In this document: positions 383-13,217 of the stretch, one piece after another
How the letters are laid out: each line of letters starts with the position of its first letter
Position numbering within the stretch: position 1 is the stretch's first letter
IMG/VR virus record: IMGVR_UViG_3300005529_000001
Span: 1 to 16,881 of that record
Strand: one strand, 5' to 3'
From: a virus
DNA length: 16,881 nucleotides
Translations under genes and position numbers: made by a program
The notes under the pieces: generated by a model
What the model saw: only the letters and a program-made list of their open reading frames with translations
Told to the model about the DNA's origin: nothing
Databases searched by the model: none

Positions 383-766
383 CGCATCACCTGAACAGCA
401 TGCAAAACTCTTCCCACCTACGTCGCCAGATCGCTCGTCTCTGAGCCCGACGAGCTTGGCGCTTTCGCTCTTTGGCTTCTTGTTCCTGTGTGCACTGCTG
501 GCACCAGCGGCCAGCACCATTCTGACAGTTGTGCTTCCAGCACCACGGGATGCAGAAACAAGAATCAGGTGGGTTGCCGCAGTTGAAACACTCGAACATT
601 TGAACTCTTGGCGGTGACGTCCCGCTTCAGGACTGCACCGTACCACACTGGGTTGCAGTTATGCATTAGTCTGTAGTTCGATACGTTCACCTTAGCGAGT
701 CACCCGCTTATGCCAGGCGCAAGGACCCGAGCGACCGTCGGCGATGGTTACTTGCGTCTTCCTGGG

Positions 767-837
767 AGCGACCGACGGGGTTCGAACCCGTGCCTGCAAG
801 TTGGGAACCTGCATTGCTACCACTACACCACGGTCGC
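767..837 (-). tRNA. tRNA-Gly(CCC)
   Basis: T-arm acggg/gttcgaa/cccgt at 775-791. Perfect 7-bp acceptor (768-774 vs 831-837). Anticodon loop reads TTCCCAA in tRNA sense. Discriminator U. CCA encoded at 764-766. D-stem imperfect. Confidence 0.6.
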
Positions 838-903
838 GTTTCGCTTTCACCTACGCCCCCTCCGGGTCATACCCAGCGGGGGTTTGGGAGTGGTTACTTG
901 CGG

Positions 904-975
904 AGCGGGCAACGGGATTCGAACCCGTGACACCCTGCTTGGAAGGCAGGAACTCTACCGCTGAGTTATGCCCGC
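904..975 (-). tRNA. tRNA-Gly(UCC)
   Basis: T-arm 912-928. Acceptor 905-911 pairs with 969-975. Anticodon stem cctgc/gcagg with loop CTTCCAA. Canonical D-arm. Confidence 0.8.
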
Positions 976-993
976 ATGTCTTTAACTATCTTA

Positions 994-1869
994 CTACGCA
1001 GCTACGTCTCCGTTCAACTTGGTGCTCAGAGCCTGGTAACGTACCAGGATGTCGGTCTGGTCTTCCAGCACCGCTCGTTGGTGTGAGAAAGCGAAGTGAC
1101 AAACCACTGCATCTCCAACGATCCACAGCGGTTTCAATAACTGTTCTGGGATCCGAGTCGTCAGTTCCACTTCGTCACGGGGGCCCACCTGACCGCCAAA
1201 CCTCTTGAATGATTCTCCGGTCCATGCCATCGTACCGATGCGTTGCCGGCCGGTGATGTAGTGAGAATCAAAATAGAGATCCTCGACGTGGTTGGTCTCA
1301 GCAAGCTCAAGAAAGCGCTTGTGGATGTGTGCTGCAAACTCGCCGTTGGTGCACGCGATTGGGCACCGTGGGTCACCAGTCGAGTGACCGAGATCGACGT
1401 CTAGGGTCCCCCTGTCCTGTTGCAGCTTTGACGTGTATGGGATGTTGAAGACATTACCAACGCAAGCGTAGTTGTGAGGCTCCCGATCGATGACAGCCCC
1501 GAACATGTTCTGGAAGAACTCATCATGCACGTAACAGATGTCATCATCGATCTTGCAATACAACGTGTTGGGTTCGATGCAATCAGAGTAGAACCTGTAG
1601 ATCGAGTCGTTGAACTGGTAGTGGTTACGTTTGGCGTCGTACAGGGCTTTGTTCAGCTGCCCCTTCGGCATCGATCGCTTGACCTTTGGGAATGTCTGTT
1701 CCATTCTCGCGAAGTACTCGAGGTCGCTCTCCACGTCGGTGTTGACCCACAACCTGACCTCATCAATGATGCCAGCATGACGGTCAGCCAAGAGGTACGG
1801 GAGCAACACCCTGAGGTACCGGTAACGGCCCGAAGGCACGCAAATGACGACCTTTCGTCCTTGGAACAT
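994..1869 (-). CDS. hypothetical protein, possibly GT-A-like glycosyltransferase (DxD motif)
   Basis: 291-aa ORF with ATG at 1867-1869. N-terminal VVICVPSGRY...LL and KIDDDICYV (DxD) are reminiscent of nucleotide-sugar transferases. Function not established. Confidence 0.55.
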   Translation of the reverse strand: MFQGRKVVICVPSGRYRYLRVLLPYLLADRHAGIIDEVRLWVNTDVESDLEYFARMEQTFPKVKRSMPKGQLNKALYDAKRNHYQFNDSIYRFYSDCIEPNTLYCKIDDDICYVHDEFFQNMFGAVIDREPHNYACVGNVFNIPYTSKLQQDRGTLDVDLGHSTGDPRCPIACTNGEFAAHIHKRFLELAETNHVEDLYFDSHYITGRQRIGTMAWTGESFKRFGGQVGPRDEVELTTRIPEQLLKPLWIVGDAVVCHFAFSHQRAVLEDQTDILVRYQALSTKLNGDVAA

Positions 1870-1884
1870 GCCAGATTATACCAC
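1870..1884 (-). promoter_or_regulatory. extended -10 promoter-like element (TGGTATAAT) directly upstream of the 1869 start, possibly leaderless
   Basis: Minus-strand sense reads ...TAGGTGAACGTGGTATAATCTGGC-ATG. TGn-TATAAT lies 5 nt before the ATG and no SD is present. Confidence 0.35.
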
Positions 1885-1950
1885 GTTCACCTATGGCGGC
1901 CAGTGTCGTTATCTGTTAGCTGGTGCACGCTTACGACTGGTTACTCGTGG

Positions 1951-2022
1951 AGCGGATGACGGGGCTCGAACCCGTGACATTGTGCTTGGCAAGCACACAT
2001 TCTACCACTGAATTACATCCGC
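1951..2022 (-). tRNA. tRNA-Gly(GCC)
   Basis: T-arm 1959-1975. Acceptor 1952-1958 vs 2016-2022. Anticodon stem tgtgc/gcaca with loop TTGCCAA. CCA encoded at 1948-1950. Sense sequence closely resembles canonical bacterial tRNA-Gly. Confidence 0.8.
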
Positions 2023-2046
2023 AATGATCGTAACTATACAACACGG

Positions 2047-2134
2047 AGGAAGCGAAGGGATTCGAACCCTTGGGAGCCCAAGGGGCTCCACCAGCTTTCC
2101 AAGCTGGCCGTTTCAACCTCTCACGCACGCTTCC
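2047..2134 (-). tRNA. tRNA-Ser(GGA), type II
   Basis: T-arm 2055-2071. Acceptor ggaagcg 2048-2054 vs cgcttcc 2128-2134. Long variable arm. Anticodon stem ccagc/gctgg with loop TTGGAAA. 88 nt. Confidence 0.8.
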
Positions 2135-2137
2135 ATG

Positions 2138-2335
2138 TCACAGTTGTCTTGCTAGCTCATACTGCTCCTGTCGCAGGAGCTCAATCGCCGCATCGCCGAC
2201 GAAACACAAGCTGTTTTTGTTATCTTCAGCTTCGCGGATCATCTCCTTGATGTGTTTAGCACGCTCAAGAAGACGTTCCCTGGTAGTTGGATTGCGGCCC
2301 CCGAACACGTCTGTTTTCAAGCACATCAGGCACAT
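2138..2335 (-). CDS. hypothetical small protein
   Basis: 65-aa ORF between tRNA-Ser(GGA) and the upstream gene. Weak SD. Coiled C-terminus. Confidence 0.35.
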   Translation of the reverse strand: MCLMCLKTDVFGGRNPTTRERLLERAKHIKEMIREAEDNKNSLCFVGDAAIELLRQEQYELARQL

Positions 2336-2350
2336 GTTGTAACTTACCGT

Positions 2351-12190: not shown

Positions 12191-12192
12191 GG

Positions 12193-12265
12193 TGCCCCCA
12201 GCGGGATTCGAACCCGCGTTTTCTGGGTGAAGGCCAAACGTCCTGGGCCACTAGACGATGGGGGC
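12193..12265 (-). tRNA. tRNA-Glu(UUC)
   Basis: D-arm TCGTCTAGTGGCCCAGGAC is nearly identical to that of E. coli tRNA-Glu. Acceptor GCCCCCA. Anticodon loop CCTTCAC (C33). CCA at 12190-12192. Confidence 0.8.
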
Positions 12266-12342
12266 GTGCATGTGTTGAGGTTCTACGGTGCACAACGTAG
12301 CTCGCTTTTGGCATAAAGCCTAAGGATCAATCCAGCACATGG

Positions 12343-12416
12343 GGTGTCCGACGGGATTCGAACCCGCGTAAGTACGGTCACAGCGTACCCCCTGAGGCCA
12401 CTCGGGTACGGACACC
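12343..12416 (-). tRNA. tRNA-His(GUG) with encoded G-1
   Basis: Perfect anticodon stem gtacg/cgtac with loop CTGTGAC. Discriminator C. An extra 5' G at 12416 pairs with C73. CCA at 12340-12342. Confidence 0.8.
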
Positions 12417-12595
12417 ATGCGTGCCCGTTTGGGCACAACGTTCAGTTCTTGGTTGATTTCTTGTTATCTTTGTGGTGCTTGTCATGGTGGTTCTTGTAGA
12501 GAACCGCACCGGCGATGACAGCGATCACGATTGCAGCGAGCTTGAGCTTGTTCTTCATTTTCATATCGTACACCGTGTTGCACCAAAGTGCAAGG

Positions 12596-12667
12596 AGCTG
12601 AGGAAGGGACTTGAACCCTCAATCGCCTGCTTACAAGACAGGAGCATTGCCATTATGCTACCTCAGC
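12596..12667 (-). tRNA. tRNA-Thr(UGU)
   Basis: T-arm with acttgaa loop. Acceptor gctgagg vs cctcagc. Anticodon loop CTTGTAA. Confidence 0.75.
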
Positions 12668-12766
12668 AAAACCCGTTCACCTGCTGCCCTGGAGTTGAAC
12701 TCAGGCCCTCCCGCTTGGACGGCGGGCGTGCGACCGTTACACTTGCACATGTGGTTACTTGGATGG

Positions 12767-12850
12767 TGATCTCCGTGGGACTCGAACCCACACGCCCTTG
12801 CGGGCACCGGATTTTAAATCCAGCGCGTATGCCGATTTCGCCAGGAGACC
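12767..12850 (-). tRNA. tRNA-Leu(UAA), type II
   Basis: T-arm gtggg/actcgaa/cccac. Acceptor has one G-U. Variable-arm hairpin gccc/gggc. Anticodon loop TTTAAAA. CCA at 12764-12766. Confidence 0.7.
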
Positions 12851-12854
12851 GTGG

Positions 12855-12926
12855 AGCGAGCGGCGGGATTCGAACCCGCGTTTCCAGGCTGGCGACCTGG
12901 CACATGTGCCTCTCTGTCACACTCGC
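12855..12926 (-). tRNA. tRNA-Gly(GCC)-like second copy, with C33
   Basis: T-arm gcggg/attcgaa/cccgc. Acceptor has a U-G at 6-67. Perfect anticodon stem ccagg/cctgg with loop TCGCCAG. Discriminator U. CCA at 12852-12854. Confidence 0.55.
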
Positions 12927-13037
12927 ATTTGCTTTCACCTTCAAGGAATTGAACCTCCACCTCCCAGCTTCGCGCCAGGTGTTCTCCCATTAAACTACAG
13001 TTAGCTTCTCAGCCAACTGGGAACTGGTTACTCACGG

Positions 13038-13110
13038 AGCTGGCCACGGGAGTCGAACCCGTCATCTCGTCCGTACCAAGGACGCGTGTTCCCACGCCTA
13101 CTCGGCCAGC
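13038..13110 (-). tRNA. tRNA-Thr(GGU)
   Basis: T-arm acggg/agtcgaa/cccgt. Acceptor gctggcc vs ggccagc. Anticodon stem cgtcc/ggacg with loop TTGGTAC. Confidence 0.8.
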
Positions 13111-13124
13111 AATCTTCGTTCACC

Positions 13125-13217
13125 TGCGTCGAAAGGGACTCGAACCCTTACCCAAGCTCAACACTTGGAAACCGGTTTTGTGCCGGCCGCGTATGCCTGT
13201 TTTTCCGCCATCGACCT
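13125..13217 (-). pseudogene. aberrant type-II tRNA-Leu(CAA)-like gene, possible pseudogene
   Basis: Good T-arm aaggg/actcgaa/ccctt and a D region TGGCGGAA... like bacterial tRNA-Leu. The anticodon loop reads CACAAAA (A33). The first two acceptor pairs are mismatched. Variable hairpin has a 7-nt loop. 93 nt. Confidence 0.35.

Follow-up and report, generated by a model that had tools for sequence, protein, structure and literature searches.

A recurrent box in a phage tRNA array is best read as one strand of a conserved RNA stem closing modular spacer elements

In a 16,881-nt viral stretch of metagenomic DNA (IMG/VR record IMGVR_UViG_3300005529_000001; hereafter the window, by which we mean this entire stretch), 35 tRNA genes lie densely packed on the minus strand, and a nine-nucleotide box, AGGTGAAMG, recurs among them. 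This box is best read not as a promoter but as the 3' strand of a conserved RNA stem that would close a modular, co-transcribed spacer element, whose 5' strand is provided by a second motif, AGTAACC, upstream of it. The predicted pairing of the two motifs is well supported by covariation, and the elements are restricted to the tRNA arrays of several uncultured lineages of large phages. The window (56% G+C) is part of a 369.5-kb metagenomic contig (ENA ERZ27279688 k141_1055159), of which we examined 34.6 kb, and the size of this contig points to a huge phage.

Ten exact copies of AGGTGAAMG occur on the minus strand (684-692, 844-852, 1884-1892, 5473-5481, 5624-5632, 6676-6684, 8022-8030, 12674-12682, 12932-12940 and 13117-13125) and none on the plus strand, against an expectation of 0.39, and none of 200 shuffled sequences reached ten copies. 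The first-pass annotation, made by a model from the letters of the window, had recognized this recurrence and placed the copies to within 1-3 nt, missing that at 5624-5632; its enrichment over shuffled sequence, which that annotation had left to be checked, is borne out. Two near-identical 20-mers that it had reported are located at 5463-5482 and 5920-5937, and a variant box, AGGTGAATG, at 5928-5936 (minus strand). For five of the ten exact boxes, the start lies 14-17 nt ahead of the 5' end of a tRNA (Thr-ggt, Gly-gcc, Thr-tgt, Arg-tct and Gly-ccc; P ~8e-5), and degenerate boxes precede Arg-ccg (AGTTGAAAG) and Met (AAGTGAAAA), so that 7 of the 35 tRNAs carry a box, with 4-12 nt between it and tRNA +1: the supposed tie to tRNA 5' ends is a real positional bias, but one confined to a minority of tRNAs. 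Before protein genes of the window, the spacing from box to ATG is 14-16 nt. The copy at 5624-5632 falls within tRNA-Arg-ccg itself (3' strand of the anticodon stem and variable loop) and belongs to no element, and that at 8022-8030, in the 3' end of an open reading frame (ORF) with a SLOG domain (8000-8572), is an orphan with no AGUA partner and most likely a chance copy.

A comparison of all tRNA flanks brought the box's constant partner to light. AGTAACC is the most enriched 7-mer outside tRNAs (8 copies versus 0.47 expected, all eight on the minus strand), and the 8-mer AGTAACCA is the most enriched of its length there (7 versus 0.15 expected). Each of the eight AGTAACC copies lies within 20 nt past a tRNA 3' end (P ~9e-12), and every one has a box 46-108 nt further on; the order of the unit is tRNA, AGTAACC, variable core, AGGTGAAMG, 4-12 nt, next gene. 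The box had previously been described as part of a two-part element that opened with a T-loop-like hairpin. Two parts there are, but the constant one besides the box is AGTAACC and not the hairpin, which is found in about 6 of 11 window copies, 1-10 nt from the box.

In 5' to 3' order along the minus strand, the predicted element consists of the first strand of an outer helix (P1), one non-Watson-Crick position, AGUA, ACC, a purine, the core, an invariant A, GGU, GAA, a second non-Watson-Crick position and the returning strand of P1, with ACC and GGU forming a 3-bp inner helix (P2). P1, in which nucleotides 5' of AGUA are complementary to those 3' of GAA, is typically 3-9 bp long and of any sequence (for instance CUUC/GAAG, AUCC/GGGU, GGGAUC/GAUCCC, CACAC/GUGUG, CCACG/CGUGG, GAUUGAC/GUCAAUC and CCCAGCGA/UCGUUGGG), and the core measures ~20-140 nt. 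The 5' strand of P1 starts at the CC(A) tail of the upstream tRNA or within it, and its 3' strand ends 2-5 A/U-rich nt before the next tRNA, or 10-11 nt before an ATG in two of the window's elements (E4 and E8 below).

Variant copies of the motifs change in matched pairs (AGTA-ACT with A-AGT-GAA, AGTA-AAC with A-GTT-GAA, AGTA-AAT with A-ATT-GAA, and AGTA-ACA with A-TGT-GAA), from which we infer that ACC pairs with GGU and that P2 covaries. We curated 49 non-identical elements from the window and 14 other loci, or 47 from 12 loci without two doubtful Bacillus-phage matches; the single match in Bacillus phage Grass and its relatives was excluded because it probably represents an ordinary Shine-Dalgarno site. 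The six P2 types among the 49 elements (ACC/GGU, ACU/AGU, ACU/GGU, ACA/UGU, AAC/GUU and AAU/AUU) are all compatible with pairing, and the same elements contain 46 distinct P1 strands. Covariation was evaluated on 28 elements for which the motifs had been the only criterion of collection. All 28 have a paired P2, among which there are 8 double changes and one G-U; each of the three inner pairs of P1 forms in 22-23 of the 28 and is represented by 4-6 pair types. Over the whole structure, 75.4% of positions are paired versus 56.2 +/- 2.3 in column shuffles, none of 500 of which reached the native value; sliding the 3' partners by 1-3 columns lowers pairing to 19-37%, and the covariation score is 0.493 versus 0.170. 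Native flanks pair over a mean of 4.4 bp versus 2.65 bp for non-native combinations (permutation p <=5e-5). The dominant register, (1,1), with one unpaired position on each side of AGUA/GAA, accounts for 28 of the 49 elements, and in 20 elements of shared register 117 of 120 cells are paired, including 5 G-U and 1 A-C. Because the box varies as pairing with its partner predicts, its conservation is best attributed to RNA structure, and the suggestion that it constitutes a promoter finds no support. The accompanying claim that it does not have sigma-70 architecture holds: a scan of the window for -35/-10 hexamers with 16-18 nt spacing returned 4 sites versus 6.0 expected, none of them at a box.

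The two strands between P1 and P2 resemble a known RNA module. AGUA and GAA occur in all 49 curated elements, partly by ascertainment, and likewise in orthologue alignments whose cores diverge. AGUA opposite GAA is the canonical sequence of the sarcin-ricin (loop E, bulged-G) motif (PMC1865062), which is modular and has one variable flanking trans sugar-Hoogsteen (tSH) pair on its outer side (PMC8450098). In the element, AGUA faces GAA, and the putative loop sits between the Watson-Crick helices P1 and P2 with a single variable outer position, at which the combinations (AA, GA, CC, AC and others) resemble the tSH set of PMC8450098.

What the stem encloses differs from copy to copy. About half of the elements have a plain hairpin as core, and the others a tRNA-like body with good D, anticodon and T arms and a mismatched acceptor stem. 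The cores form a gradient from a good body (7269-7339 of the large contig L090, 58 bits) through sub-threshold ones (E7 at 28.6 bits and E2 at 19.7 bits, the other window cores scoring below E2) to plain hairpins; none combines an RF00005 score of at least 29 bits with a paired 7-bp acceptor stem, and those of the window are found by ARAGORN at relaxed thresholds only. Elsewhere, tRNA-like cores with mismatched acceptor stems resemble Leu-UAA, Val-UAC, Thr-UGU and Lys-UUU on contig L066 and Gln-UUG on L060. The best-preserved cores (L066 816, 2436, 5216 and 5412; L090 7269-7339; L060 37; and E7) have U/A-rich anticodons: UAA, UAC, UGU, UUU, UAU, UUG and GAA.

In tRNA-like copies, the invariant A occupies the discriminator position (A73), GGUGAA begins at the place of CCA, and a semi-conserved G 2 nt upstream corresponds to position 71. 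The succession first noted as a T-loop hairpin and then a box is the T arm, the vestigial 3' strand of the acceptor stem, A73 and a conserved trailer, and the hairpin often precedes the box because these cores are tRNA-like bodies with an A at the discriminator position. Hairpins of this kind do exist, that at 12942-12958 exactly where it had been reported and that at 12688-12705 close to it, but two others had been displaced by ~8-10 nt and are really at 5492-5508 and 5693-5707. A supposed tandem pair of boxes at 6676-6700 is one box (6676-6684) followed by a hairpin, CGG-UGAAACU-CCG, at 6688-6700. With the core removed, the motif halves read CAAGUAACC and G-N-AGGUGAAC, resembling the contiguous ACAAGGUAACC and GUAGGGGAACC of E. 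coli 16S rRNA (h44-h45 junction and h45 loop); since the G-N-A positions correspond to tRNA positions 71-73, this likeness is probably a coincidence.

The window contains eleven elements, all on the minus strand. E1 (13114..13234), between tRNA-Cys and tRNA-Thr-ggt, has the P1 CUUC/GAAG, with AGUAACC at 13223-13229 and AGGUGAA at 13119-13125; its 97-nt core is a type-II tRNA-like body with a T arm, GGGTTCGAGTCCC, at 13135-13147, detected under relaxed ARAGORN settings only, and orthologues are present in L001, L002, L018, L066 and L090. E2 (12931..13035) lies between tRNA-Thr-ggt and tRNA-Gly-gcc, with motifs at 13026-13032 and 12934-12940 and a weak P1 of 2 bp; its tRNA-like core (Rfam tRNA, 19.7 bits at 12934-13004) includes the T-loop hairpin GGAGGTTCAATTCCTTG at 12942-12958. 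In E3 (12671..12764; tRNA-Leu-taa to tRNA-Thr-tgt; motifs 12753-12759 and 12676-12682), P1 is AUCC/GGGU, starting from the A of the upstream CCA, and the stem encloses a degenerate tRNA-like body whose T arm (12688-12705) is bulged. E5 (10194..10279; tRNA-Leu-tag to tRNA-Met) is a variant that combines AGUA-ACU at 10263-10269 with A-AGU-GAA at 10205-10211; the 5' strand of its 8-bp P1, CCCAGCGA/UCGUUGGG, takes in the discriminator and CCA of tRNA-Leu-tag, and orthologues occur at L001 8936 and L003 1006.

The next two elements bracket a protein gene. E4 (6670..6784), from tRNA-Leu-cag to ORF223 (ATG at 6659), has the P1 GAUUGAC/GUCAAUC and motifs at 6769-6775 and 6678-6684, and E4b (5914..6002), at the end of ORF223, pairs an AGUA-ACA at 5986-5992, which overlaps the stop codon, with A-UGU-GAA at 5924-5930, below an 8-bp P1, GACAUCGC/GCGAUGUU. 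The variant box AGGTGAATG (5928-5936) adjoins E4b just 5' of the 3' strand that really pairs. E6 (5675..5758; tRNA-Arg-cct to tRNA-Arg-ccg) is another variant, with AGUA-AAC at 5745-5751, A-GUU-GAA at 5682-5688, the P1 GGGAUC/GAUCCC and a T-loop hairpin, CCGGTGCGAGTCCGG, at 5693-5707; the cores of E4 and E6 keep only such a hairpin. E7 (5469..5595; tRNA-Arg-ccg to tRNA-Arg-tct), with P1 CACAC/GUGUG overlapping the upstream CCA and motifs at 5583-5589 and 5475-5481, encloses a hairpin and a tRNA-Phe(GAA)-like body at 5487-5553 (T arm 5492-5508) that scores 28.6 bits against an Rfam threshold of 29.

E8 (1881..1950), between tRNA-Gly-gcc and ORF291 (ATG at 1869), has P1 CCACG/CGUGG, again overlapping the upstream CCA, and motifs at 1939-1945 and 1886-1892. 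The earlier report of TGGTATAAT near the start of the ORF291 gene is correct: this extended -10, which no other element has, lies at 1875-1883, downstream of the box and overlapping the 3' end of the E8 P1, and ends 5 nt before the ATG, and TACTAT occupies the same place in the L007 orthologue; a leaderless ORF291 transcript is suggested. E9 (842..902; tRNA-Gly-tcc to tRNA-Gly-ccc; P1 CGC/GCG; motifs 892-898 and 846-852) is minimal, at 61 nt, and its core is one plain hairpin that differs in sequence among the window, L002 and L003 and folds in all three; the junction has an element in L066, L078 and L090 as well. E10 (683..757), past tRNA-Gly-ccc, has motifs at 746-752 and 686-692 and a weak P1, ACG/CGU, at offsets of 2 and 0 nt. 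Among the long spacers that have no element, that between Glu-ctc and Pro-tgg (14911-15102) contains GGTTGAAAA/GGTTGAACG beside a G+C-rich hairpin, conserved between the window and L002 (~4777); others are at 14608-14736, 14023-14140 and 12416-12593.

Protein-guided searches of IMG/VR and metagenome contigs recovered syntenic arrays (L001, L002/L007, L003, L014, L018 and L037), and these relatives carry both motifs at the same junctions around intervening sequence that has diverged. In two orthologue alignments, motif columns are identical at 14 of 14 positions, and core columns at 24 of 70 and 7 of 39. Large indels misplaced the motifs in the MAFFT alignment A2, and the figure of 7 of 14 obtained there is an artefact, the motifs being present in all three sequences. 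Elements are also gained and lost: those that separate Arg-cct, Arg-ccg and Arg-tct in the window, and the one ahead of ORF291, correspond to spacers of 0-21 nt in relatives, and the E6 junction has no element in L001 and L002, the E7 junction none in L001, and the E8 junction none in L007 (21-nt spacer) or L003 (6-nt spacer). At the position where E4 and E4b bracket ORF223 (the 5914-6784 region), L014 (2588-2728) and L037 (3380-3533) have a single element and no ORF; ORF223, which matches no Pfam or PHROG family, looks like a cassette inserted at an element. The order of the tRNAs differs between relatives.

A pattern scan of IMG/VR for a T arm, AGTAACC and GGTGAA returned 76 stretches, 22 of which, lying in tRNA arrays, were examined for elements. 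Further large contigs with elements in their arrays are L066 (30 tRNAs, 8 elements), L090 (34 tRNAs, 4 elements), L055/L082, L060/L085, L078 (340 kb) and L101, with P1 helices of up to 9 bp; L066 has no nucleotide match. Outside the array, neither motif occurs in the ~18 kb of flanking genes (~35 phage genes) within the 34.6 kb read. The T4 tRNA cluster (rnaC and rnaD) and a 40-kb region of huge phage LR745208 contain no element, and in more distant relatives, T4 and a 485-kb huge phage the motif is at background only. Against Rfam 15, tRNA and RNase P RNA were the only families to match at the gathering threshold, and relaxed scans over the element regions added nothing beyond weak tRNA-like matches; we found no description in the literature of the motif strings or of a sarcin-ricin element in phage tRNA clusters. 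The element is thus a new predicted structured RNA element, without a counterpart in Rfam.

We regard these elements as most probably sarcin-ricin-clamped RNA spacers that act as a leader-trailer clamp or recognition module in the tRNA precursor, and assign this explanation as a whole a probability of roughly 0.6; its functional part, that the element has a role in processing or recognition, is more tentative and we put it well below even odds. The first-pass annotation had offered a processing signal as the other half of its guess, and this possible role is the direction favoured here. As proposed, the element would fold on its own, within a long tRNA/mRNA precursor, into a rigid stem that proteins could recognize. 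Such a clamp could separate and insulate neighbouring tRNAs, which are often near-identical isoacceptors (Gly/Gly, Arg/Arg, Lys/Lys), might fix the single-stranded leader that RNase P needs at the next tRNA, and may present the sarcin-ricin module to a factor, of host or phage, by which the RNA is processed or bound after excision; the element would then be released or recognized as a discrete RNA of 60-130 nt.

Several observations weigh against this explanation. The sarcin-ricin assignment of the AGUA/GAA loop derives solely from sequence consensus and helix context, and the invariance of AGUA, GAA and the A preceding GGU stems in part from the search patterns with which copies were collected. 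Orthologous copies are not independent, and the statistics carry no correction for phylogeny. P1 is weak in some copies (2 bp in E2, 3 bp at odd offsets in E10, 1 bp at L001 5745), and the distance from T arm to P2 ranges from 1 to 10 nt, so that the tRNA-like core has no single fixed geometry. Finally, some long spacers (Glu-ctc to Pro-tgg, Val-cac to Pro-ggg, and Thr-tgt to His) have no element, which implies that the element is not required for processing in general.

The comings and goings of elements could alternatively mark a DNA recombination module, in which hairpin-forming sites shuffle tRNA and ORF cassettes in the manner of PeSLs or folded single-stranded attC sites, and the pairing is that of a DNA hairpin. 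In general architecture the element resembles sites of the attC type, 60-130 nt in which two boxes pair, a spacer stays unpaired and the terminal structure varies. The presence or absence of whole elements at conserved junctions (Arg-cct/Arg-ccg/Arg-tct, and Gly-gcc to ORF291), the location of ORF223 between E4 and E4b versus one element and no ORF in L014 and L037, the differing tRNA order among relatives, and the HNH endonuclease genes in the array would all accord with shuffling. We nevertheless consider such a module improbable: the conserved patches of 7-9 nt are too short for homologous recombination, the invariant loop has the canonical sequence of an RNA motif, the stems hold 5 G-U against 1 A-C, and all copies are on the transcribed strand, abutting RNA processing sites. 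Moreover, the sigma-70 consensus of PeSLs (PMC2839356) is absent, and neither an integrase nor a Y1-transposase domain is encoded in the 34.6 kb of source contig examined. Recombination could be a by-product of RNA function. A grading of cores from good tRNA-like bodies to plain hairpins, together with the invariant A at the discriminator and the semi-conserved G at position 71, would likewise be expected if the elements were the decaying leaders and trailers of a former class of tRNA genes, with little or no present function. This, too, we judge unlikely, in that the stem motifs are invariant, and P1 and P2 covary, even around hairpin-only cores, which argues for purifying selection on the stem itself; the stem between Gly-tcc and Gly-ccc is kept in the window, L002, L003, L066 and L078 (G+C 51 to 61%), and even the best cores already have mismatched acceptor stems.

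The same defective acceptor stems, in best-preserved cores whose D, anticodon and T arms are intact and whose anticodons are U/A-rich, could instead indicate tRNA mimics that the stem would keep from being aminoacylated and that, after excision by tRNA-processing enzymes, would serve as decoys for host tRNA-targeting defence nucleases or other tRNA-binding factors; or the sarcin-ricin module might act as a decoy for factors that target the ribosomal sarcin-ricin loop. A proposal that tRNA arrays are anti-defence devices (PMC12803027) would fit such a role, as would an island encoding PTH2, RF-1-domain, NADAR and SLOG proteins with RNA ligases nearby; set against this, the core of about half of the elements is a plain hairpin that shows no tRNA features, the anticodon loops in the window are degenerate (CACAAAA, CGUCCAA), and the stem has no GAGA tetraloop like that of the ribosomal sarcin-ricin loop, and we accord decoys little credence. 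A related idea is equally speculative: the elements might be undescribed phage small RNAs, ~10 copies per genome, in which tRNA bodies with U/A-rich anticodon loops, or hairpins, have the acceptor stem replaced by a sarcin-ricin-type clamp, made by the tRNA-processing machinery, including the phage RNase P RNA, and acting not as mere spacers but as decoys or adaptors for a host factor, such as a defence nuclease that targets tRNAs or ribosomes. We hold two further readings of the box alone to be very improbable. In one, a phage-specific RNA polymerase or sigma factor would start transcription 5-8 nt downstream of it, at the tRNA or just ahead of it; a strand-specific 9-nt box followed by 4-8 A/T-rich nt and usually a G at tRNA +1 is what such a promoter family might look like, and the SP6 promoter also contains AGGTGA. 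The box covaries with its upstream partner, however, its variants AAGUGAA, AGUUGAA, AAUUGAA and AUGUGAA following the pairing; tRNA +1 lies anywhere from 4 to 12 nt away, a spacing unfit for a T7/SP6-like promoter; there is no sigma-70 architecture; and no copy lies upstream of the ~35 flanking phage genes, which is unlike a general phage promoter. In the other, AGGUGA, which is complementary to UCACCU at the 16S 3' end (verified), would act like a Shine-Dalgarno sequence, recruiting ribosomes or serving as a ribosome decoy or stabilizer, and copies in relatives 0-4 nt before ATG or GTG (L007 11972, L014 2656, L037 3449 and 4040) and AGGTGATGCG-ATG at the HNH gene of the window are in keeping with it. 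Yet the same variants lose this complementarity while still pairing with the 5' partner, most boxes precede tRNAs, the 14-16 nt to ATG compare with 4-10 nt required, most genes lack a Shine-Dalgarno sequence altogether, and GGU is sequestered in P2.

A number of other candidates were tried and set aside. A scan for intrinsic terminators (G+C-rich hairpin plus U run) yielded 21 versus 16.3 expected, none at an element, and the core hairpins run into the box, not into a T run. Neither the phage RNase P RNA nor the rest of the transcript strand has a site complementary to the box; a K-turn, an 11-nt tetraloop receptor and a hammerhead core do not fit in sequence and polarity; and an external guide sequence directed at the 16S rRNA 3' end has the wrong arm topology and does not accommodate the variants. 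The attC-like R-box consensus (RYYYAAC/GTTRRRY) matches poorly and implies a different pairing register, and PeSL cassettes are excluded by the want of a promoter consensus, though a stem-loop and an association with indels are present. A mobile repeat of the MITE or REP kind does not fit cores of 20 to 137 nt that share no sequence similarity, only the 7-9-nt motifs being common to the copies.

The array in which the elements lie has several further features. A full-length class A RNase P RNA gene (11028-11385, minus strand; 267 bits, model positions 1-367) begins 1 nt after tRNA-Leu-cag, inside the array, and has counterparts at the equivalent place in L001 (7687-8044) and L002 (8142-8496), at 260 and 277 bits. 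An RNase P RNA carried by a phage appears unusual, and we found no report of one from a bacteriophage in the literature. The genes among the tRNAs encode PTH2, an RF-1-domain protein, NADAR, a SLOG domain, a DUSP-like phosphatase and HNH endonucleases, and two RNA-ligase-domain genes (PF09414) flank the array on either side in the 369.5-kb contig (L008 2903-3775 and L010 12381-13079); with the ligases, the in-array PTH2, RF-1-domain, NADAR, SLOG and DUSP-like genes make up a large island for translation and RNA repair. No cultured relative was found in the phage collection, and no isolate has a protein match that reaches 46% identity. Isoacceptors are duplicated (two each of Leu-cag, His-gtg, Phe-gaa, Pro-tgg and Gly-gcc), and at 13643-14022 the tRNA genes are spaced by 0-9 nt or overlap by 1-2 nt (Phe/Phe at 13713-13714; Thr-cgt/Pro-tgg at 13949-13950).

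Protein genes can be packed just as tightly against tRNAs. The ATG of orf74 (12190) overlaps the CCA of tRNA-Glu-ttc, and that of a nucleotidyltransferase ORF (11876) is 1 nt past tRNA-Leu-gag; ORF starts 0-1 nt past tRNA 3' ends suggest leaderless mRNAs generated by tRNA processing, comparable to the 'tRNA punctuation' of mitochondria. Most genes of the window lack a Shine-Dalgarno sequence, and many have an ACAAC- or AACA-like context right before the start codon. A small ORF directly past tRNA-Arg-tct (~5151-5374, minus strand) begins MLQWYDSTMRTLVWAVLLASLVGC, resembling a lipobox-containing lipoprotein signal peptide; upstream of it is a box-like AAGTGAAAG plus 4 nt, in a stretch that begins immediately at the tRNA-Arg-tct 3' end.

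Cumulatively, what began as a mystery box becomes a defined, covariation-backed candidate RNA element that occurs about ten times in each genome, around hairpins or crippled tRNA bodies. The tRNA arrays of huge phages, with 30 to 40 or more genes, give rise to kilobase-long precursors, and the element raises the hypotheses of a new processing or recognition signal for polycistronic tRNA transcripts, of a family of tRNA-mimic small RNAs, and of a cassette-shuffling module. At 61 nt, E9 offers a small model substrate for structural and biochemical study. More generally, where strand-specific intergenic boxes occur near tRNAs, a distant pairing partner should be looked for before a promoter is called.

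Among known systems, tRNA-like modules with closing stems have precedents in the bacterial and phage YrlA (Y RNA-like) RNAs and in RNAs C and D of phage T4, which combine a tRNA-like module with a closing stem thought to bind protein, lie beside tRNA genes and are released by tRNA-processing enzymes. The element resembles them in joining a tRNA-like module to a closing stem adjacent to tRNA genes, and T4 rnaC also has its T arm at the 3' end. However, the element has no Rfam match to YrlA, its stem is of opposite polarity and its motif is unlike the Ro-binding helix, and the T4 cluster lacks the AGUA...GAA element. The leader-trailer stems of rRNA and tRNA operons, cut by RNase III or, in archaea, at a bulge-helix-bulge, similarly pair 5' and 3' flanks and have an internal motif that marks a unit in the precursor; here, in contrast, the stem is short (~10-15 layers), the motif is a putative sarcin-ricin loop and not an RNase III or bulge-helix-bulge site, and what is bracketed is a relic or a hairpin. 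PeSLs of T4-like phages, which consist of a sigma-70 consensus promoter and a terminator stem-loop and act as DNA or transcription signals (PMC2839356, PMC4122927), are likewise short, repeated, hairpin-bearing intergenic cassettes in a plastic region of large phages where flanking genes are gained and lost, but the element has no promoter consensus and its conserved parts are predicted to pair with each other as RNA. In the stem itself, the likeness is to the sarcin-ricin/loop E motif, with AGUA opposite GAA, a variable outer non-Watson-Crick position and Watson-Crick helices on both sides, a likeness drawn from sequence. This motif usually serves as an autonomous binding platform for a protein or another RNA (PMC1865062, PMC8450098), and the element differs from the ribosomal version in having no GAGA tetraloop and in placing the motif not in rRNA but in the closing stem of phage spacer RNAs.

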